Part shown: one piece after another, positions 26,248-64,000 of the stretch
Layout of the letters: each line of letters begins with the position of its first letter
Position numbering within the stretch: position 1 is the stretch's first letter
Sequence record: NC_070870.1
Direction: 5' to 3' (one strand)
Origin: Escherichia phage phi G17
DNA: 64,000 nt
Notes under the pieces: generated by a model
What the model was told of the DNA's origin: nothing
What the model saw: the letters and a program-made list of their open reading frames with translations, nothing else
The model's database searches: none
Translations under genes and position numbers: made by a program

Positions 26248-26407
26248 TAGTAGCTTTTAATAGATAGCTGTATTTGAGCATTATAGTCTGCTCATACTCA
26301 CACTCTTCTGTCGAAGAATATGTTTACAATATCTAGAGTGCCGGACTGTCTTACCGGCATTGTCTTTAGAGTGCTAAGCAATCAGGACTATGTTCTCTAT
26401 TAATGGG

Positions 26408-26481
26408 TGCCCACTACTGGATTTGAACCAGTGACTTTCCGATTATTAGTCGGTTGCTTTCCCCGTCTAAGCTAAGTGGAC
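26408..26481 (-). tRNA. tRNA-like gene, canonical cloverleaf, apparent anticodon AAU
   Basis: Minus-strand read GTCCACT-TA-GCTT-AGACGGGGA-AAGC-A-ACCGA-CTAATAA-TCGGA-AAGTC-ACTGG-TTCAAAT-CCAGT-AGTGGGC-A: 7-bp acceptor (one G-U), 4-bp D stem with GG in D loop, 7-nt anticodon loop with U33, 5-bp T stem with TTCAAAT loop; anticodon stem has one A-A mismatch. Confidence 0.45.
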
Positions 26482-26613
26482 ATAATAGGGTGAGTCATGC
26501 CAGGCTCTAACTGGCTCCTTCTTCGCAATCCTTACATACCCCTACATAATTATTGCGTTAAGCTTTTTTGTTTAAGTTTAAGTGAAGGTGTTCTTGCTGA
26601 CTCATAATACTTT

Positions 26614-56944: not shown

Positions 56945-57198
56945 ACTTTCTCCAGTGTACTGTAGATTGAATCTTTAGTGGGTTTATAGTGCGTATTAAG
57001 CCCTATATCTTCTTGCTTACCTTTCTTACTAACCCATATTCCATGGTCAGTTAGTTTAGGTTTATGACTGAATCCAATTAAGGTTGAACTCTTAGTAAAT
57101 GTATTTGGAAGCAAAGCAATGTAATTAACCCATAAAGGGACATCGACAGTGCTTCCCATATATTCAACCATCTTGTGAGTAGGATAGGTAATAATCAC
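56941..57198 (-). CDS. hypothetical protein
   Basis: 85 aa ORF, overlapping start/stop with neighbours. Confidence 0.35.
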   Translation of the reverse strand: MIITYPTHKMVEYMGSTVDVPLWVNYIALLPNTFTKSSTLIGFSHKPKLTDHGIWVSKKGKQEDIGLNTHYKPTKDSIYSTLEKV

Positions 57199-57416
57199 TT
57201 CTGGTATCCTTGTATATAGTTAATACGACGAATACGTTGAGTAGATGCCTTAACAGCCATCTGTTGATTCTCTTCTTTGTGCTGATTTTCCAGCACCTTA
57301 GCCCATTCTTCCTGGTTCCGTTGTTTCTGTAATATACGACTACAACGTTTATGATTGGCAACTCCACGTCCTTTCTTACAGACTGGGCAAATACCATAAT
57401 CGCTTGTGTACATCAT
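57195..57416 (-). CDS. small Cys-containing protein (possible zinc ribbon)
   Basis: 73 aa; CPVC plus downstream Cys, basic. Confidence 0.35.
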   Translation of the reverse strand: MMYTSDYGICPVCKKGRGVANHKRCSRILQKQRNQEEWAKVLENQHKEENQQMAVKASTQRIRRINYIQGYQK

Positions 57417-57721
57417 TGGCTTAAAGCCTCCATTAATATTTTACGAATAACGTTAACATCAGATTCAGTACCAATTAAACCAACAGGTTTCTTAGTACCA
57501 TCAGTGACAAAGGATGCAATCCTTTCCATCTCTGCTGTAATTAATTTGTCACCACTAATAAGACGATTACGAAGGTAAGCTTCATAAGCTACCTCTACAT
57601 CTTCTACCGTGGTTCTTTCATTACGAGTGAATGGATTACTTAATGGGAAGGGTAAATGTACCCGTATATTCCTGTCAGCTACCTTAGCTAGGTGAGGAAG
57701 TATACATACTATTTCATTCAA
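57413..57721 (-). CDS. hypothetical protein
   Basis: 102 aa ORF. Confidence 0.4.
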   Translation of the reverse strand: MNEIVCILPHLAKVADRNIRVHLPFPLSNPFTRNERTTVEDVEVAYEAYLRNRLISGDKLITAEMERIASFVTDGTKKPVGLIGTESDVNVIRKILMEALSQ

Positions 57722-57761
57722 GGTTCTTTCTCCTATTTAAATACATATCTAACTATTCAAA

Positions 57762-57797
57762 AATAAAAAATAGGAGCCTCCTATTGGAGGACTCCTA
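57762..57797 (-). terminator. rho-independent terminator (minus orientation)
   Basis: TAGGAGCCTCC-TATT-GGAGGACTCCTA stem; A-run on plus strand. Confidence 0.55.
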
Positions 57798-57854
57798 GTT
57801 CTACTAATGCACCATAGGTTAACAGTGCACACATAATTAATGTTATAGGCCAAT

Positions 57855-58067
57855 TCATATAAATGGGTATAGGTAGTTGACTACACAATAATATACGAAC
57901 CATAAACCATAGCCTATGCTCAATCCCTTAGTTAATGCAGTAACATAACCAAATATTGCAAAACCTCTGGCATCATTATTAGTAACAAAGGTTTTAGTGA
58001 TATTACCAGCTGCATTAGTGAGCCAAACGTTCAGGTATAGTAATACTATAAAGATTATAAAGTACAT
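57855..58067 (-). CDS. small membrane protein
   Basis: 70 aa, two hydrophobic helices. Confidence 0.35.
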   Translation of the reverse strand: MYFIIFIVLLYLNVWLTNAAGNITKTFVTNNDARGFAIFGYVTALTKGLSIGYGLWFVYYCVVNYLYPFI

Positions 58068-58363
58068 TATTAATTTCCTAAGATTGGATGATTGAAGGTA
58101 ACAATCTTACGTACTGGTTCAGTTGTCTGTTGCTTAGCAGCCAGACGCTCTTTCATCTTTTGTACGTCAGCTTTGGTTCCCATGATTAATGACTTACGCA
58201 TGTTTGGTACTCCACATAAAGTTAAAAGGTTTATTGTTACGTACAATTCTTACAGCCATTTGATGACCATTGATTTGCACAACACCATAGTGTCGTTTCT
58301 GGTCACCAGTGTGATATCTACGATAGATACACTCTTCAATGGCATCCTCAATGTTAGTGAACA

Positions 58364-58606
58364 TCACTGGTTCCTCTTTGCATAGTCTTCTGCTTCTTTA
58401 GCCCAGAGTTGCTTACGAACTTCTTTGGCTATGATGGAAGCAAACAGACACTTAACGAATACAACTGGTAACTTAACAATGAGGATAGTCTTAGTGACTA
58501 CCCACTTAACTAATTTCAGTGCAATGAATCTCACTCGGTAAGCCACATAGAAGATGAACAACCATGTAGCAACAGAGATTAAATAGCCTAATTCGTATAC
58601 AGACAT
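58364..58606 (-). CDS. small membrane protein
   Basis: 80 aa, hydrophobic N-terminal helices, basic C-terminus. Confidence 0.35.
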   Translation of the reverse strand: MSVYELGYLISVATWLFIFYVAYRVRFIALKLVKWVVTKTILIVKLPVVFVKCLFASIIAKEVRKQLWAKEAEDYAKRNQ

Positions 58607-58710
58607 AGTACATATCCTCTTCTAATATAAATCTATATCTAACTGGTTACTGTTTCAGTACCCTTCGTCTAAAGATACTCAAAAAGTAGAAATAGCTTAT
58701 CGCATAGTTA

Positions 58711-58739
58711 AAAATAAAAGGACTACCCGAAGGTAGTCC
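58711..58739 (-). terminator. rho-independent terminator (minus orientation)
   Basis: GGACTACC-TTCG-GGTAGTCC on minus strand followed by TTTTATTTTT. Confidence 0.7.
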
Positions 58740-58748
58740 AGTTGTTGA

Positions 58749-59132
58749 TTAGAAAGTCAGTTTACGAGCATATTTATTCTCGTCTGCTGGGATGTCAGCA
58801 GCCTCTGCTTTCACACGACGAAGTTGAACTTGCAGGTTAATGATACCTTCTTCACCTGGTTCCAGGTTCTGAGCATATTCGATTAACTGTTCCAGCAAAT
58901 CGTTCTGTGCACAACGCATAGCACGGAAGTCAGCATTGCTGCTGTTAGTAGGCAGTGCTTCCTGAGTATCCAGTGGAATACCAGTAGGCAGAGAGATGAA
59001 CTTCTCTTCTTCAGAGCCTTCGTTAGCAACATAACCAATGTTCAACCAGAACTGAGCCTTAGGCTTAGCAGCTTTAGTTTCAGTGGTAGCAGCAGCGTTA
59101 GATTGACCGAAAGTGAATTTTTGAATAGACAT
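58749..59132 (-). CDS. early protein, unknown function
   Basis: Start set to internal ATG ([11 protein letters not shown]) with SD GGAGAG 8 nt upstream; first ORF downstream of candidate hairpin promoter at 59243-59257. Confidence 0.45.
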
Positions 59133-59242
59133 TTTGTACTCTCCAGATAAATGATTGTTTGATTTATGGGTTTGTCTGTCGGTGACTAAACCCAAGAAAA
59201 GACTTAAGATTTCAATGATTAGTGGATTCACATGAATCCTTT

Positions 59243-59257
59243 AGACGCGGAGCGTCT
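59243..59257 (-). promoter_or_regulatory. candidate virion-RNAP hairpin promoter
   Basis: Plus (template) strand A-GACGC-GGA-GCGTC-T: 5-6 bp stem, 3-nt purine loop; shares GCGGAGC core with hairpin at 60013-60027. Confidence 0.45.
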
Positions 59258-59262
59258 GGTTT

Positions 59263-59556
59263 TTAAGACAAGCGTTTAAGCAACTCTGCTCTAGCAGATT
59301 CGTAGTCAGAACTATTCTGTCTTACTGCATCTTCGAAGCGAGCCAGTAGTTCTTCCTTATCAGGACCAACAAGTTCTTCCCATTGCCATACATAACCAGT
59401 TAATGGAACAAGTTCTCCTTTCTGGAAGTAAGGATATTGTCCAAGTAGAACAGTAGAATCTTTAGTGAGAACTATCGTTTCTCCACTAAGTTCTCCTTCA
59501 ATAATTGTTCCAACAGGAAGTTCAGAATTGCCTTTGATACAACGGAATTTAGTCAT
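59263..59556 (-). CDS. hypothetical early protein
   Basis: 97 aa ORF. Confidence 0.4.
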   Translation of the reverse strand: MTKFRCIKGNSELPVGTIIEGELSGETIVLTKDSTVLLGQYPYFQKGELVPLTGYVWQWEELVGPDKEELLARFEDAVRQNSSDYESARAELLKRLS

Positions 59557-59610
59557 GATTTTCTATCCTTAAAGTAGATAAATATCTACTTAGACTATCT
59601 ATCTAATCTT

Positions 59611-59638
59611 TATAAAAGGAGACTCCGAAGAGCCTCCT
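59611..59638 (-). terminator. rho-independent terminator (minus orientation)
   Basis: AGGAGGCTC-TTCG-GAGTCTCCT on minus strand followed by TTTTATA. Confidence 0.6.
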
Positions 59639-59646
59639 ATATTGAT

Positions 59647-59970
59647 TTAGTCTTTAGTCAGGATGTCGATTACTTTTGAATATTCTGCGTTATAGATACG
59701 AGCGTTCTCAGAATCTTTGCAGAATTCTTCGATACTTTTCTTACGCAGAGTTTCGTTCATAGCTGTTTCTTCAGCTAATTTGTTTACGAATGTATGCATT
59801 TCTAATTTAGTACGGATGGCTTGTTTCTCAGCCATAGTAGATACATATGAGTTAAGCATACCAACTGCTTTAGTAGCTGTGCCGAATGTATCAGCAACAG
59901 TAGTAGCAGCAGAGTTAACAGTACCAAGTAAAGTTCCTGCGGTCATACGTACAGTAGCGGTAGTAGTCAT
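59647..59970 (-). CDS. hypothetical early protein
   Basis: 107 aa ORF; first ORF downstream of candidate hairpin promoter at 60013-60027. Confidence 0.4.
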   Translation of the reverse strand: MTTTATVRMTAGTLLGTVNSAATTVADTFGTATKAVGMLNSYVSTMAEKQAIRTKLEMHTFVNKLAEETAMNETLRKKSIEEFCKDSENARIYNAEYSKVIDILTKD

Positions 59971-60012
59971 GATGATAGCTCCAAGGTTAGATGATAGGAC
60001 GACATGTCCATA

Positions 60013-60027
60013 ACATGCGGAGCATGT
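60013..60027 (-). promoter_or_regulatory. candidate virion-RNAP hairpin promoter
   Basis: Plus (template) strand A-CATGC-GGA-GCATG-T: 5-6 bp stem, GGA loop; same GCGGAGC core as 59243-59257 with covarying outer stem. Confidence 0.45.
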
Positions 60028-60175
60028 GTAACGTGTAAGGTGGGGTAGGGCAGTGGCTACACGGTCAACATACCGGGGGGGATGGTTGAGTGTAAGGGTG
60101 TAGCCCCAGCCACACCACTACAGCTATACATAGCTATCAATATTTTGATATGCAAAAATATCATAGCTATCTCAC

Positions 60176-60463
60176 TTATAAGCAGTTAAATAGGAGGTGA
60201 GGGGTTTGGTAGCTATCTGTATTCACATGCCACGGGGAGGACATGCTTCCCTCCCACGGGAGTACCTTTCCTGGTTCAAGTACCCTTACTATAAGTTTCT
60301 TACCTGCTATCAGTGCCAAGCCTTGTAACTCATGAAGGGTATCTTCATCGGGGACCAGAACCAGTGTGGCTTTAGCTAGCTTTAGATCTTGGAAGTCTAT
60401 CTGTCTTTTTACAGAGTCGGGTCTATACCCTTTAAGAGGAATACGCGTGATAATCATAGTCAT
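60176..60463 (-). CDS. hypothetical early protein
   Basis: 95 aa ORF. Confidence 0.35.
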   Translation of the reverse strand: MTMIITRIPLKGYRPDSVKRQIDFQDLKLAKATLVLVPDEDTLHELQGLALIAGKKLIVRVLEPGKVLPWEGSMSSPWHVNTDSYQTPHLLFNCL

Positions 60464-60822
60464 ACGCCGTAGTCTATCTTAACCAATCTGCCTTTGTAGT
60501 AGCCAAAGTTCTTGGGAAAGGCATCATATTCGTAGAACTCTCTGGATAACTCACAAGAGTGGTATAGGGATTCTAACTCACACCAGAATAACCCCTCATT
60601 GTTAACTTTACTGGCTCTAGCCATGACAACCAGTAGGCCAAATCTATTCGAGTAATGGATTGGACATAGATGCTTGTCTGGGTAATCTTTCCATTGACCC
60701 TCTGTAAGGTTGCTAAGCATACCCTGTACAAAGGTCTTCCATGTCTTGGGGATAGGGAACTTAATAGCATACTTACGTGTTAATAGTACCCATCTGGTTC
60801 CACCTGATTTAATCAGTCTCAT
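60460..60822 (-). CDS. hypothetical early protein
   Basis: 120 aa ORF. Confidence 0.4.
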   Translation of the reverse strand: MRLIKSGGTRWVLLTRKYAIKFPIPKTWKTFVQGMLSNLTEGQWKDYPDKHLCPIHYSNRFGLLVVMARASKVNNEGLFWCELESLYHSCELSREFYEYDAFPKNFGYYKGRLVKIDYGV

Positions 60823-61026
60823 GGTTTTAGTAACCTCAGTATAAGTTTAAACATTACCAGTTCTATAAGATGGTGCTTTGGTGATTATACGGATAGTTCT
60901 GAAGGAGTTACCTTCTCTTACCGTACCGGTCGGAAGTACACGGTAACTTTATTCCGGGACATTAAACCCCAGCGTGGGTTGAATATTTCCTGGGTAGATA
61001 CCCCTCCTTCAAACATCATGAATAGT

Positions 61027-61341
61027 TTAAGGTTCATACTTCAGTACCTGATTAAGAAGACTATCCATGTAATAGCAGTATGCCTCGGAGGATTCGTCAT
61101 TAATAGGAAGACCAATTAAGCCAAAGGTGTATATGCAGAAGTGATTGAGTTCATGAACCAAGGTGATAGGGTCATTATCTTTTGCATAGATGAGTACCGA
61201 ACCATTAGGGAGTAGTGAGGTTATACCTTTGCTTCCATCCTCTGGTTCAATGCCTTTAGCCTTCTTATATTTCTTAGAGAAGGTAGACCAGTCATGTACT
61301 ACTTCTAACTGTACTGGATAGGGGGATGTGTTTAGTTTCAT
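61027..61341 (-). CDS. hypothetical early protein
   Basis: 104 aa ORF. Confidence 0.4.
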   Translation of the reverse strand: MKLNTSPYPVQLEVVHDWSTFSKKYKKAKGIEPEDGSKGITSLLPNGSVLIYAKDNDPITLVHELNHFCIYTFGLIGLPINDESSEAYCYYMDSLLNQVLKYEP

Positions 61342-61661
61342 TAGATACTCTCGTCGCTAGATAAATATGAGGTAGAAGGATAAAGGGTAATCAGTCTACC
61401 GGTAAGGGTAGTAGCTACCATAGGTTCACAAGTAGATAGGATGTATACACCTTTATTCTTAGGTACTTCGACAGGGGTATCTATCTTAATAAAAGTAACT
61501 GGTATACCTAACATTAAGCATGTACCAAGGAATTCATCAGCTTCTTGACTAGGTTCATACAGGACTGTAGTAGTCTTAGCCTTACCGTTGTACCAATCCT
61601 GCTTTGTTATGCTGGATAGATAGCAACTATCACTGTAGTTAGCTAAACAATAGAAGTGCAT
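61341..61661 (-). CDS. hypothetical early protein
   Basis: 106 aa ORF abutting neighbours. Confidence 0.4.
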   Translation of the reverse strand: MHFYCLANYSDSCYLSSITKQDWYNGKAKTTTVLYEPSQEADEFLGTCLMLGIPVTFIKIDTPVEVPKNKGVYILSTCEPMVATTLTGRLITLYPSTSYLSSDESI

Positions 61662-61664
61662 AGC

Positions 61665-61979
61665 TTACTTCCTTACATAGTAGTAACGGTATTCGTCATT
61701 CTCATAACGACTATCCCATTGGTATTCATCAGATACCAGCATGTATGGGATAGGATCATTAGCACTGTGGTTTGTATAGACGGAAGGGGGAACAAGACAT
61801 ACAACCTTACGGTCATTACTTGCCAAGAAGAGTTGACCCCTTACTTCATGGTAATCCTCTAAGGTAGGAACCAGGATTACTTGATGTGGGTTACTGTTCA
61901 TGACCTCTTCTAAAGTGAAGTCAGTTGTGTACATAGACACCCTTTCAGCAAAACTGGGGATGGTCATTATAAATTTCAT
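61665..61979 (-). CDS. hypothetical early protein
   Basis: 104 aa ORF. Confidence 0.4.
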   Translation of the reverse strand: MKFIMTIPSFAERVSMYTTDFTLEEVMNSNPHQVILVPTLEDYHEVRGQLFLASNDRKVVCLVPPSVYTNHSANDPIPYMLVSDEYQWDSRYENDEYRYYYVRK

Positions 61980-62343
61980 GATTGGTTCTCCTTCCTTTAG
62001 GAAGAGGTCTGAAGTAAATGGAAAGTGTTTTATTAAAGACGTTATGGTCAGCTATCAATTCCCAACCGTCTATCTTATAGAAGCGTACACCGGGGAAGAA
62101 CTCATTGAATCCTATATAGCGGGTAAGGTCATACACCTTTGGTTCAGTAAGTATCTCAGTGTTAAGCTGAAGGTTGTATAAGAAAAGAGAACCAATAACC
62201 TCATGGGACTCTTCGCAGTCAGGTAAGAATACTGATTGCCATGGAGCAATGAACTTACTTACTGCTTCTGGTTCCCCAAGGTAATAGGGTTCCTGCTTAT
62301 GAAGTACTCCAGTAATATCAATATCAAAACAGTAGATGCTCAT
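61945..62343 (-). CDS. hypothetical early protein
   Basis: 132 aa ORF. Confidence 0.4.
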   Translation of the reverse strand: MSIYCFDIDITGVLHKQEPYYLGEPEAVSKFIAPWQSVFLPDCEESHEVIGSLFLYNLQLNTEILTEPKVYDLTRYIGFNEFFPGVRFYKIDGWELIADHNVFNKTLSIYFRPLPKGRRTNHEIYNDHPQFC

Positions 62344-62358
62344 AATTGCATACCTCCA

Positions 62359-62395
62359 GAAAAAGAAATGGGGTAGAGCCTCTCGACTCTACCCC
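62359..62395 (-). terminator. rho-independent terminator (minus orientation)
   Basis: GGGGTAGAG / CTCTACCCC 9-bp stem; on minus strand followed by ATTTCTTTTTCT. Confidence 0.6.
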
Positions 62396-62545
62396 TTACC
62401 GTTTTCAATCACGGGTCAGTTCATCCCCCTAGGTACTTATGTACCGTTAGACCAACTGGGTTGGCAAAGGAGCCGGGGAACCCTGACTGTAGAAGTTATT
62501 AACTCTTTACGAGTACCGCCACTGTCTACTAGGCGGTATGACTAA

Positions 62546-62863
62546 TCACATCGTCACCGTCATCCGAACGCTATCGTTGCTTCGTTTGATGGAGACACTA
62601 TGAGGTAATTTTGTGAAGAACACAAGAGATGAAACAGACTTTTCTAAAGAGTAAGTTTCTTGTGGTTCTAAGATGGTAACACCGGGACGATTCTCTAATA
62701 ACATCATTCCAGATAACTCATGGAAAGAATCCCAGTCATGGGTAACAACTATGTCACCCTTCATTAAGCCAGCCTTGGTGTGGCTTACTTCAAAGTATTT
62801 GTCTCCGGAGTCTTGGACTCTCATAAAGATTCTCAAGGGGTACTCCTTGGGGAATAAGGTCAT
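62546..62863 (-). CDS. hypothetical early protein
   Basis: 105 aa ORF, rightmost minus-strand gene. Confidence 0.4.
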   Translation of the reverse strand: MTLFPKEYPLRIFMRVQDSGDKYFEVSHTKAGLMKGDIVVTHDWDSFHELSGMMLLENRPGVTILEPQETYSLEKSVSSLVFFTKLPHSVSIKRSNDSVRMTVTM

Positions 62864-63006
62864 CGGAACATTACATACTATTTAGTATCATGAACTTTTT
62901 CTATATCATGACTAAAGTGTAACTGTGTGGTAGAGTTTCTTCAAGGGGTATCTCACCCCAAGAAAAGAATCTTCGTTAATAGACATAACTTTGTAGAGAG
63001 ATAAGT

Positions 63007-63696
63007 ATGAGTGAACTAACTAAGCAGCAGATTGTTAATGCCTTACCTGCTAACTTCAAGAACAGTGTGAGCCAAGAGTTGGTAGACACGATTAACAACG
63101 TAACCCAGGACCAATTGGTTGCTGAGGCATTTCGTGAAAACTTCATCTCTTACTCTGGTGTCATGAAGGAAGGCAAGTTTAAGACACAGGACTACATGAA
63201 TGCAGTTCAGTATGTAACTTACAAACACATGGGCTACTCGAATAAGGAAGCCTACTTCAAGACATTCCCCAACCGACAAGCAGAACTAGTAGCACGAGGA
63301 ACCAGTGAGAAAGATATTAGTGCTTACGTATCTGCTTATCACAGAGGTAAGTTAGTTAACCTAATCATGGAACAAAGTTTGGTTCCAGTGTGGATTGTGA
63401 ACCAAGACAATTATCAGAAGGCAATCAACGTACAGGTTGAACTAATGAATACGGCTGTTAGTGAGAAGGTTCGTTGCGATGCAGCTAACTCTATCCTTAC
63501 TCACTTAGCTAAACCAAAAGATCAGGTAACGAATATCAATCTGGACTTGAGAGAGAACTCCGGGTTGACTGACCTCAAGGCAACACTTGCTGCATTGGCT
63601 GAACAGCAAATTAGTGCAATCAATAGTGGTGTACCTACTAAAGAGATTGCTGGTTCTAAACTCGTACGTGCAGATGAGGACATTACAGATGTCTGA
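63007..63696 (+). CDS. hypothetical protein preceding terminase (possible small terminase subunit)
   Basis: 229 aa ORF whose stop overlaps the ATG of the next ORF (ATGTCTGA); position only. Confidence 0.3.
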   Translation: MSELTKQQIVNALPANFKNSVSQELVDTINNVTQDQLVAEAFRENFISYSGVMKEGKFKTQDYMNAVQYVTYKHMGYSNKEAYFKTFPNRQAELVARGTSEKDISAYVSAYHRGKLVNLIMEQSLVPVWIVNQDNYQKAINVQVELMNTAVSEKVRCDAANSILTHLAKPKDQVTNINLDLRENSGLTDLKATLAALAEQQISAINSGVPTKEIAGSKLVRADEDITDV

Positions 63697-64000
63697 GTTA
63701 ATTAAACAGGAACTAGATGAATGGCTAGACCAGGTGGATTACTCCCACCTTAATTCTTCTAACTATGTTCCTAGTCAGTTTGCTCTTACCTTTGCCAACT
63801 TCATTAAGTTGGTTAATGGCAAAGAGGGCGAATCAAACAAAACACCTCCAGTTCACCTGAAGATGTTGGATAAGATGATTAGCCCTAACCAGTATGTAGT
63901 TAACCTGTGTTTCCGTGGTGCAGGTAAGACTGCTGTATTCATGGAATACTTTACTCTGTTCCTGGCAGTGTTTGGTCACTTACCTAGTTTGGGTAAAGTA
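63689..64000 (+). CDS. probable terminase large subunit, N-terminal part (ORF runs off window end)
   Basis: Open frame from ATG 63689 to window end; FRGAGKT Walker-A-like motif; location at head of late strand. Confidence 0.4.
   Translation, partial: MSELIKQELDEWLDQVDYSHLNSSNYVPSQFALTFANFIKLVNGKEGESNKTPPVHLKMLDKMISPNQYVVNLCFRGAGKTAVFMEYFTLFLAVFGHLPSLGKV

Follow-up and report, generated by a model that had tools for sequence, protein, structure and literature searches.

The physical ends of N4-like phages have been mapped in several cases. For N4, two reports, citing Ohmori et al. 1988, describe a unique left end, direct terminal repeats (DTRs) of 390-440 bp and a heterogeneous right end (PMC3715699, PMC3896407). 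In phage G7C the terminal repeat is annotated at positions 1-1160 and 71758-72917 of the record, and a further report states that the G7C ends were checked by Sanger run-off, with which the left end given by PhageTerm for Mimir124 agrees (PMC11640937). In the read-start table of phage IME11, the reverse peaks (63122-63126) have the sequence GTGGCTGGGGCTACACCC and the forward peak (62722) has AATCTTTGCAGAA (PMC3896407), phages UE-S5a/S5b/M3/M6 have "T7-like" DTRs of 401 bp according to PhageTerm (PMC11927229), and the ends of Pseudomonas phages LUZ7 and LIT1 were set by sequencing run-off (PMC3715699). As a type of locus, the left end of an N4-like phage with its DTR boundary is therefore already known from N4, G7C, IME11 and others, and we add one more. 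It belongs to Escherichia phage phi G17, of which we analyzed a stretch of 64,000 nucleotides (NC_070870.1; hereafter the window, to which coordinates refer unless another genome is named), and more precisely to the segment 60028-60175. A first-pass annotation made from the letters alone had described this segment as rich in G-tracts and repeats and adjacent to a hairpin promoter, and had offered promoter upstream elements, an origin or a G-quadruplex-forming region near a genome end as explanations. We propose that the segment is probably a concatemer-type junction at an N4-like left end, bearing a candidate two-sided cut-site signal for the packaging terminase.

Comparison with phage records, by megablast of 59000-61500 (68 records) and blastn of 59960-60200 (82 records), matched the window almost exclusively to N4-like coliphages of the genus Gamaleyavirus (G7C, IME11, PhAPEC7, St11Ph5, Mimir124, the UE phages and others), with weaker matches to Kaypoctavirus (Klebsiella) and to N4's own genus, Enquatrovirus. 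The window is a Gamaleyavirus genome (G7C/IME11-like, Schitoviridae), given as a circular assembly that is reversed and circularly permuted. Since the genes around 60028-60175 are on the minus strand, the canonical N4 orientation corresponds to the minus strand of the window. The segment itself is non-coding, lying between the stop of the open reading frame (ORF) 60176..60463(-) and the start of ORF 59647..59970(-), and shares 85-95% identity with IME11 and 81-92% with G7C.

Several deposited phage records start or stop inside this segment. By local blastn and multiple alignment, position 1 of both G7C and PhAPEC7 falls on 60112 and position 1 of N4 on 60111, while the boundary of the annotated Mimir124 DTR (403 bp, PhageTerm) falls at about 60114. 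The IME11 genome has the same orientation as the window and is about 93% identical to it here; its peak strings map to 60113 and 59712, the reverse string spanning 60096-60113. The records of the UE phages begin at the equivalent of 59712. The position of the predicted terminus is thus established through homology with the experimentally mapped ends of relatives. The suggestion of a nearby genome end was correct and can be made exact, as the left terminus, which is also the left boundary of the DTR, would lie at about 60113, inside the segment; the read-start pile-ups by which the annotation proposed to check it had already been published for IME11, at the same spot. Positions 60028-60113 would accordingly be the opening 86 nt of the genome and of its DTR of about 401 bp, and 60114-60175 the final 62 nt of the unique right arm, after the last gene; the two are joined in the window because the assembly was circularized with the DTR collapsed. 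The window holds each motif once, and both DTR copies were verified in six relatives; among relatives the DTR length ranges from 401 to 1160 bp. The first early gene, gp1, and the first hairpin promoter of the virion RNA polymerase (vRNAP) sit directly inside the predicted left end. The elements of the junction are as follows.

60129..60171, no strand assigned: AT-rich imperfect palindrome in the tail of the right arm, in which CATAGCTATC occurs twice (60129-38 and 60162-71) and the arms lie at 60130-47 and 60153-70
60114..60129, minus strand: right-arm 16-mer GTATAGCTGTAGTGGT (family consensus GTAYGRNTGYAGKRNN, core GYAGKR), at whose 3' edge, within 1 nt, the physical end lies in all genomes with defined ends
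60113, minus strand: predicted physical left terminus, first base of the DTR and 5' nucleotide of the canonical top strand, placed by homology with an uncertainty of 1-3 nt
59712..60113, minus strand: predicted DTR of about 401-402 bp, one collapsed copy, from the IME11 peaks, Mimir124 (403 bp) and the UE phages (401 bp)
60090..60107, minus strand: terminal motif GGGGCTACACCCTTACAC, genome nt 7-24, invariant in Gamaleyavirus, Enquatrovirus and Kaypoctavirus and absent in remoter lineages
60072..60081, minus strand: run of seven C then GGT (CCCCCCCGGT), genome nt 33-42, a family-wide element
60053..60062, no strand assigned: inner arm of an inverted repeat, GTGGCTACAC on the plus strand, with its partner GTGTAGCC(CC) at 60098-60105 near the terminus
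60033..60051, minus strand: motif B, GCCCTACCCCACCTTACAC, with the core CCTACCCCACCTT at 60037-60049, genome nt 65-77

The three genera have invariant blocks in common, in the following order: GGGGCTACA(C)CCCTTACAC at about genome nt 7-24, C7-9 with GGT, CCTACCCCACCTT, GTTACAC, then the hairpin, and finally, around +1, TTATGGACATGTYGTCC. In the AT-rich tail, GATAGCTAT abuts the 16-mer directly, as it does in several other lineages. Motif B recurs in Pseudomonas phage LIT1, about as far from the end; in many other lineages it has degenerated or is missing.

Read in the canonical direction, the proposed junction would begin with the stop of the last right-arm gene (60178-60176), followed by the AT-rich tail, in which GATAGCTATG occurs twice, and by the 16-mer GTATAGCTGTAGTGGT (60129-60114). 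The cut would come next, leaving the 5' end of the top strand at about 60113, and the first 86 nt of the DTR would then present GGGGCTACACCCTTACAC, C7-GGT at nt 33-42 and CCTACCCCACCTT at nt 65-77 before the P1 hairpin promoter for the vRNAP and gp1. We hypothesize that the unique-side 16-mer and the repeat-side C-run, the latter accompanied by CCTACCCC in many lineages, form a two-sided recognition signal, that the packaging terminase would use it for the sequence-specific cut creating the unique left end, and that the 16-mer would be the recognition element close to the cut. The right-arm 16-mer is conserved although it is absent from the left end in the virion, which points to a function in the junction, that is, in a replicative or concatemeric context.

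The elements are common to subfamilies of phages, from E. coli, Klebsiella, Pseudomonas and the environment, that have no other nucleotide similarity. The shared layout begins with the 16-mer GTAYGRNTGYAGKRNN and a cut no more than 1 nt from its 3' edge; after some 30 nt come C7-9 and GGT(A), and often CCTACCCC. In LUZ7 and LIT1, members of another subfamily, CCCCCCCGGT lies 29-39 nt from the left end, with CCTACCCCACCTT near nt 70 in LIT1; the two phages are otherwise without similarity to the window. More generally, in LUZ7, LIT1, PEV2, N4, G7C and the contigs L194, L257 and L029, all of which have defined ends, the distance from the left end to the start of C7GGT is 29-35 nt. A pattern scan of IMG/VR for the ordered pair C7GGT-N15-40-CCTACCCC returned 72 stretches, against 16 for a control with the order swapped, and N4 hallmark proteins (RNAPII subunits, gp24, gp68, gp69) accompanied 55 of the 88 forward hits compared with 2 of the 16 control hits. 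After removal of near-duplicates, 34 representatives with flank identity below 70% were retained. Two features that had played no part in their selection are conserved among them, namely AA.TA directly 5' of the C-run and an A after GGT. The 16-mer was found by an iterative search of the 60 nt upstream with a position weight matrix (PWM), reaching a total log-odds of 397.7 versus 221.9 +/- 13.8 for shuffles, and it begins at a fixed spacing of 44-49 nt before the C-run. The terminus lies at most 1 nt from its 3' edge in every genome with a defined left end (N4, G7C, IME11, LIT1/PEV2 and three further contigs); six of the genomes with defined ends are those verified to hold both DTR copies. In addition, the GC skew flips at the cut in the 34 lineages, from +0.43 in the 30 nt before it to -0.40 after it, motifs excluded. 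In the window, the G7 run at 60075-60081, complementary to the C-run, is the sole G or C homopolymer of at least 7 nt, and CCTACCCC and CCCCCCGGT occur once each, both inside 60028-60175. The conservation of the elements, their fixed spacing and their uniqueness are thereby shown at the level of sequence. Relatives that are otherwise nearly identical have C-runs of anything between 6 and 13 nt (the window has 7, N4 9 and L031 13), a spread that could reflect true slippage or sequencing error in homopolymers.

We also sampled loci independently of the motifs, picking 80 by gp69 protein homology only. The full signal is present in 20 and a partial one in 27, most of which have the 16-mer and (A)AGTA-C7-GGT with CCTACCCC degenerate or absent; 33 have none, and only 8 of these 33 have at least 4 kb of upstream sequence. 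Among the IMG/VR contigs without N4 hallmark genes, L162, L167, L168, L175, L217, L223, L226 and L238 contain a non-coding C7GGT followed by CCC(CCC)TACCCC at varying spacing. Non-N4 contigs with C7GGT...CCTACCCC lack the 16-mer at the expected distance and were treated as chance or unrelated C-rich regions rather than as carriers of the signal. A full-text literature search for the motif strings returned only unrelated primer coincidences, and we did not find the family-wide motif described in the literature on N4-like termini; the primary papers on the N4 and G7C ends were outside that search and may describe local motifs.

The right boundary of the DTR (about 59712 in the window, nt 404 in L029) falls at the same place within 1 nt, …TTCTGCAAAGAT(T), inside the coding sequence of gp1; it is common to Gamaleyavirus and a Kaypoctavirus-like genome, and the 1160-bp repeat of G7C ends elsewhere. 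A search for a motif shared with other lineages at this boundary found none. The lack of the signal at about 59712 fits the variable repeat lengths and the heterogeneous right end of N4. Symmetric nick sites, with an inverted 16-mer at the right DTR boundary, were considered and discarded: the site in the window scores -3.1 (rank 8059 of 127,970), and across eight genomes, with 9 offsets tried in each, the best scores run from -8 to 6.1 at inconsistent positions. The gp69 homologue at 63007-63696 (+) encodes 229 aa (phrog_2109) and is strongly conserved throughout the family, with 52% mean column identity in an 18-sequence alignment; gp69 adjoins the large terminase (gp68) in N4, making it a candidate small terminase. 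It is not recognizable as one, since it has no significant sequence match in Pfam or PDB and PHROGs assigns it no function.

Several points weigh against a terminase cut-site signal. Our literature search found no published case of terminase binding or cutting at these elements, and the terminus of this phage is placed by homology only. The 16-mer of the window ranks first by PWM score among 127,970 positions, a result that is not fully independent because the training set included close Gamaleyavirus sequences. CCTACCCC is degenerate or missing in many lineages, and in LUZ7. Furthermore, phage PhAPEC5 (vB_EcoP_PhAPEC5, KF192075, L013) keeps the 16-mer and the first ~31 nt, which are followed by a P2-like hairpin, and is without the C-run, CCTACCCC, P1 and gp1. 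If this record is correct, the C-rich elements would be helpful and not essential, or would serve the P1 module. Finally, the conserved elements could act after ejection, in end protection or anchoring, or in replication. Behind the PhAPEC5 variant (nt 1-200) lies either a true deletion, carried by a viable phage, or a faulty assembly.

An action after ejection has to be weighed together with the vRNAP promoters, of which a strict hairpin scan of both strands of the whole window found three sites only, with loop centres at 60020, 59250 and 56261. All are co-oriented and within 3.9 kb of the end, a layout that matches P1-P3 of N4.

60013..60027, plus strand as template: P1-type vRNAP hairpin promoter, ACATGC-GGA-GCATGT, with -12A, -11G (60020), -10G, -9C and -8G, and +1C at 60009
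Loop centres 59250 and 56261, plus strand as template: P2 and P3 hairpins, AGACGC-GGA-GCGTCT and GGTGC-GGA-GCACC, both with +1C

The P1 hairpin adjoins 60028-60175 from outside and matches every listed determinant of N4 vRNAP; its stem differs from that of N4 and G7C by two compensatory pairs. These determinants are confined to -17 to +1 (PMC4496689). Neither the C-run nor CCTACCCC occurs within 110 nt upstream of P2 (59250) or P3 (56261), and the C-run keeps a constant distance from the terminus (nt 29-35) and a variable one from the hairpin. The idea of promoter upstream elements, at least as a generic vRNAP element, was abandoned on these grounds. In an alternative scenario, an ejected virion protein (the vRNAP or another ejection protein) or a membrane-associated factor would bind to the C-run and CCTACCCC, which lie some 30-75 nt in from the leading end, so that the end is protected or topologically fixed while gyrase supercoils the first ~500 bp and P1 extrudes about 95 nt from a free end. 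The left end indeed enters first, about 500 bp go in without transcription, and hairpin extrusion requires supercoiling by gyrase (PMC4496689); gyrase-driven extrusion near a free end implies a topological constraint there. The fixed distance of the C-run from the end and the location of the P1 hairpin at +56 to +70 from the C-run in most lineages agree with this scenario, as does PhAPEC5, where the C-run, CCTACCCC, P1 and gp1 were lost as one block, which ties the C-rich elements to the P1 module. It leaves the conserved right-arm 16-mer unexplained, however, as this element is not on the virion left end, and PhAPEC5, if its record is right, is viable without the C-rich elements. Moreover, LIT1 and PEV2 have no hairpin of at least 5 bp within 110 nt downstream of the motifs, and no protein is known to bind here. 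We thus regard a role confined to the handling of the ejected end as unlikely.

The two roles might also be combined. Under the layout GTAYGRNTGYAGKRNN / cut / ~30 nt / (A)AGTA-C7-9-GGT(A) / ~20-30 nt / CCTACCCC, the 16-mer together with the C-run would steer the terminase to its cut, and the C-run and CCTACCCC would afterwards be held by an ejected virion protein, an anchor that would allow gyrase to supercoil the first ~500 bp and so extrude the hairpin promoter. We consider this double function slightly less likely still than end handling by itself.

The motifs in the first-pass annotation were all recovered on the plus strand, some of their coordinates being off by one.

60039, plus strand: GGTGGGGTAGGGCAGTGG
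60073, plus strand: CCGGGGGGGATGG
60033 and 60090, plus strand: GTGTAAGG, a direct repeat
60053, plus strand: GTGGCTACAC, with its partner GTGTAGCC at 60098
60109, plus strand: GCCACAC
60130 and 60163, plus strand: ATAGCTATC, read as CATAGCTATC at 60129 and 60162
60137, plus strand: TCAATATTTTGATA

In addition, TTACAC is found three times within 86 nt of the minus strand (Poisson P ~4e-6, post hoc), and a repeat finder reports a 19-nt inverted repeat at 60044-62 / 60098-116 (79% complementary) and the palindrome with 18-nt arms at 60130-47 / 60153-70 (78%). The pattern of 60028-60175 is confirmed not to be due to chance. The "G-tracts" are the complement of the C-rich elements of the canonical strand. 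They raise the question of whether a G-quadruplex (G4) or another non-B structure on the G-rich bottom strand, which has its 3' end at the left terminus, could act as a telomere-like cap or as a replication or packaging signal. The G4Hunter maximum of the window is indeed here (1.76 at 60075, with 1.32 at 60035), four tracts can be arranged with long loops at 60042-60098, a two-tetrad motif of a common type lies at 60039-60056, and the fold of the G-rich strand is somewhat more stable than that of shuffled sequences (z = -2.15). The strong C-richness of the top strand inward from the cut, seen in the skew of the 34 lineages, goes in the same direction. Nevertheless, the window has no canonical G4 (four G3+ tracts, loops of 1-7 nt) on either strand, so that of the proposed G-quadruplex only the weaker long-loop and two-tetrad arrangements are left, and the long-loop one would have a central loop of about 26 nt. 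Tract conservation is partial, with at least four G3+ tracts kept in only 22 of the 34 divergent representatives, and LUZ7 is without the second tract block. What is conserved is specific sequence (AAGTA-C7-GGTA and CCTACCCC) and not the number of tracts. We rejected the canonical G4, and a role for G4 or non-B structure in general appears very improbable.

A contribution to transcription control was examined as well, with a terminator or a sigma-70 or late promoter in the AT-rich half and an upstream activating sequence of P1 in the G-rich half. The tail comes after the last right-arm gene, and its equivalent in Kaypoctavirus has a stem followed by a T-run (GGAGGT...ACCTCC TAAATTTTTT). Promoter-like hexamers can be read as TTGCAT-N17-TATGTA at 60155-60127, where the hexamers are conserved and the spacer is variable, and as TTAACT-18-TATGAT at 60189-60160. 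A promoter scan found 2 sites versus 3.2 +/- 1.6 in shuffles, which is no enrichment, and a terminator scan found no minus-strand intrinsic terminator in 60114-60175. TTGCAT shares only three of six bases with the -35 consensus, and TATGTA is conserved because it overlaps GATAGCTAT and the 16-mer. We therefore dismissed the sigma-70 promoter and the terminator. The upstream activating sequence meets the same objections as the generic vRNAP element, the G-rich elements being absent from P2 and P3 and the determinants lying within -17 to +1. Transcription control as a whole is thus improbable, if marginally less so than a G4. A known structured RNA was rejected on the basis of Rfam covariance models, which gave no match in 57000-64000 with E-values up to 1.

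The least probable of the explanations, to which we give hardly any credence, is a replication origin or priming site, in which the AT-rich palindrome with its repeated ATAGCTATC would provide iterons and the terminal inverted repeat a fold-back primer. The palindrome at 60130-60170 with its repeated 10-mer would suit such a site, as would the inverted repeat 60044-62 / 60098-116, which spans the terminus, and the fold z-scores, modest as they are (-7.5 kcal/mol and z = -3.24 for the DNA fold of the palindrome). Yet the second copy of ATAGCTATC is limited to Gamaleyavirus, and the inverted repeat, which N4 and most Gamaleyavirus retain, is displaced in G7C and missing from Kaypoctavirus. Our literature search found nothing linking the initiation of N4 replication to this site, and the cumulative GC skew tracks gene orientation only. 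The origin proposed in the annotation is unsupported, and both of its repeats are lineage-restricted. As a conserved fold-back, the terminal inverted repeat was discarded because it is not universal across genera and the fold z is only -2.15. Chi-like protection against RecBCD was considered from the sequence alone and set aside, as there is no GCTGGTGG in the right orientation and the motif is common to phages of very different hosts.

Two genes flank the junction.

60176..60463, minus strand: last unique right-arm gene, 95 aa, phrog_16338; its stop TAA at 60176-60178 bounds the non-coding junction
59647..59970, minus strand: gp1 homologue, the first early gene, 107 aa, phrog_5020, with a Shine-Dalgarno sequence GGAG at 59979-59982 read by eye

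The right-arm genes 60176-60463 and 60460-60822 (-) are swapped for unrelated ones even in close relatives; the ORF 60176-60463 is unrelated in IME11 and G7C, where an identity of 0.39 amounts to alignment noise. The mosaic boundary is sharp and lies near 60176-60200, the 62-nt non-coding tail being kept where the adjoining genes are replaced. On the other side, straight after the gp1 stop, the minus strand at 59618-59637 reads GGAGGCTC-TTCG-GAGTCTCC, then TTTTAT; this hairpin, read by eye and unlisted by the terminator scan, resembles an intrinsic terminator of the P1 transcript. Elsewhere in the window, a tRNA-Ile gene with anticodon AAT is located at 26404-26482 (-), and tRNA-Ile-AAT has likewise been reported for the related UE phages (PMC11927229).

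For annotation, these results mean that the window represents a reversed and permuted N4-like genome whose true start would be at about 60113 (-), with a repeat of about 401 bp at 59712-60113, and that the odd G-rich and repeat-rich stretch is a genome end and not a new element, the locus itself being ordinary. Beyond this phage, the signal is a concrete candidate for packaging or end formation in the whole family. The left end of an N4-like contig would be predictable to about 1 nt, from a 16-mer located 44-49 nt before (A)AGTA-C7-GGT, a rule that would help genome re-orientation, phage engineering and the design of packaging assays. The analysis also singles out a short conserved sequence at the leading end as a candidate participant in the supercoiling-dependent start of N4 early transcription. 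If the double function were true, this sequence would supply the anchor for hairpin extrusion, an unexplained step of that process.

Among the closest known systems are the mapped ends of Gamaleyavirus (G7C, IME11, Mimir124 and the UE phages), which share 88-95% identity with the window here and have the identical left boundary. IME11, Mimir124 and the UE phages also share its DTR length, at 401-403 bp, whereas G7C, with a 1160-bp repeat, shares the left boundary and differs in the right one. The window departs from all of them in being a collapsed, reversed and circularly permuted representation. With N4, it aligns base for base over the first ~210 nt at 74.5% identity and has the same order of terminus, GGGGCTACAC(C)CCTTACAC, C-run, CCTACCCCACCTT, P1 hairpin and gp1. 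The two differ in genus (Gamaleyavirus for the window, Enquatrovirus for N4), in two compensatory pairs of the hairpin stem, in the C-run (7 in the window versus 9 in the N4 record and 8 in BEU5) and in that the window terminus is placed by homology. The hairpin at 60013-60027 resembles the N4 vRNAP promoters P1-P3 in having -12A, -11G, -10G, -9C, -8G and +1C, whereas 60028-60175 is upstream of the promoter and not part of it, and its motifs are missing from P2 and P3.

In phages of the T7/T3 type, short direct terminal repeats are formed at concatemer junctions by the terminase. The N4-like phages have no sequence similarity to them, their repeats vary from 401 to 1160 bp and their conserved signal is at the left boundary only; common to both are fixed ends, a left end that is ejected first and conserved non-coding repeats beside the ends. 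The cos site of phage lambda, where the nick site cosN is flanked by the recognition elements cosB and cosQ, offers an analogy only: lambda makes cohesive ends and not terminal repeats, and a kinship in the DNA-binding part of the terminase subunits would be conjectural. The gp69 homologue has no recognizable family. Within that analogy, what the N4-like left end would share with cos is a fixed cut with conserved recognition elements at set distances on both sides.

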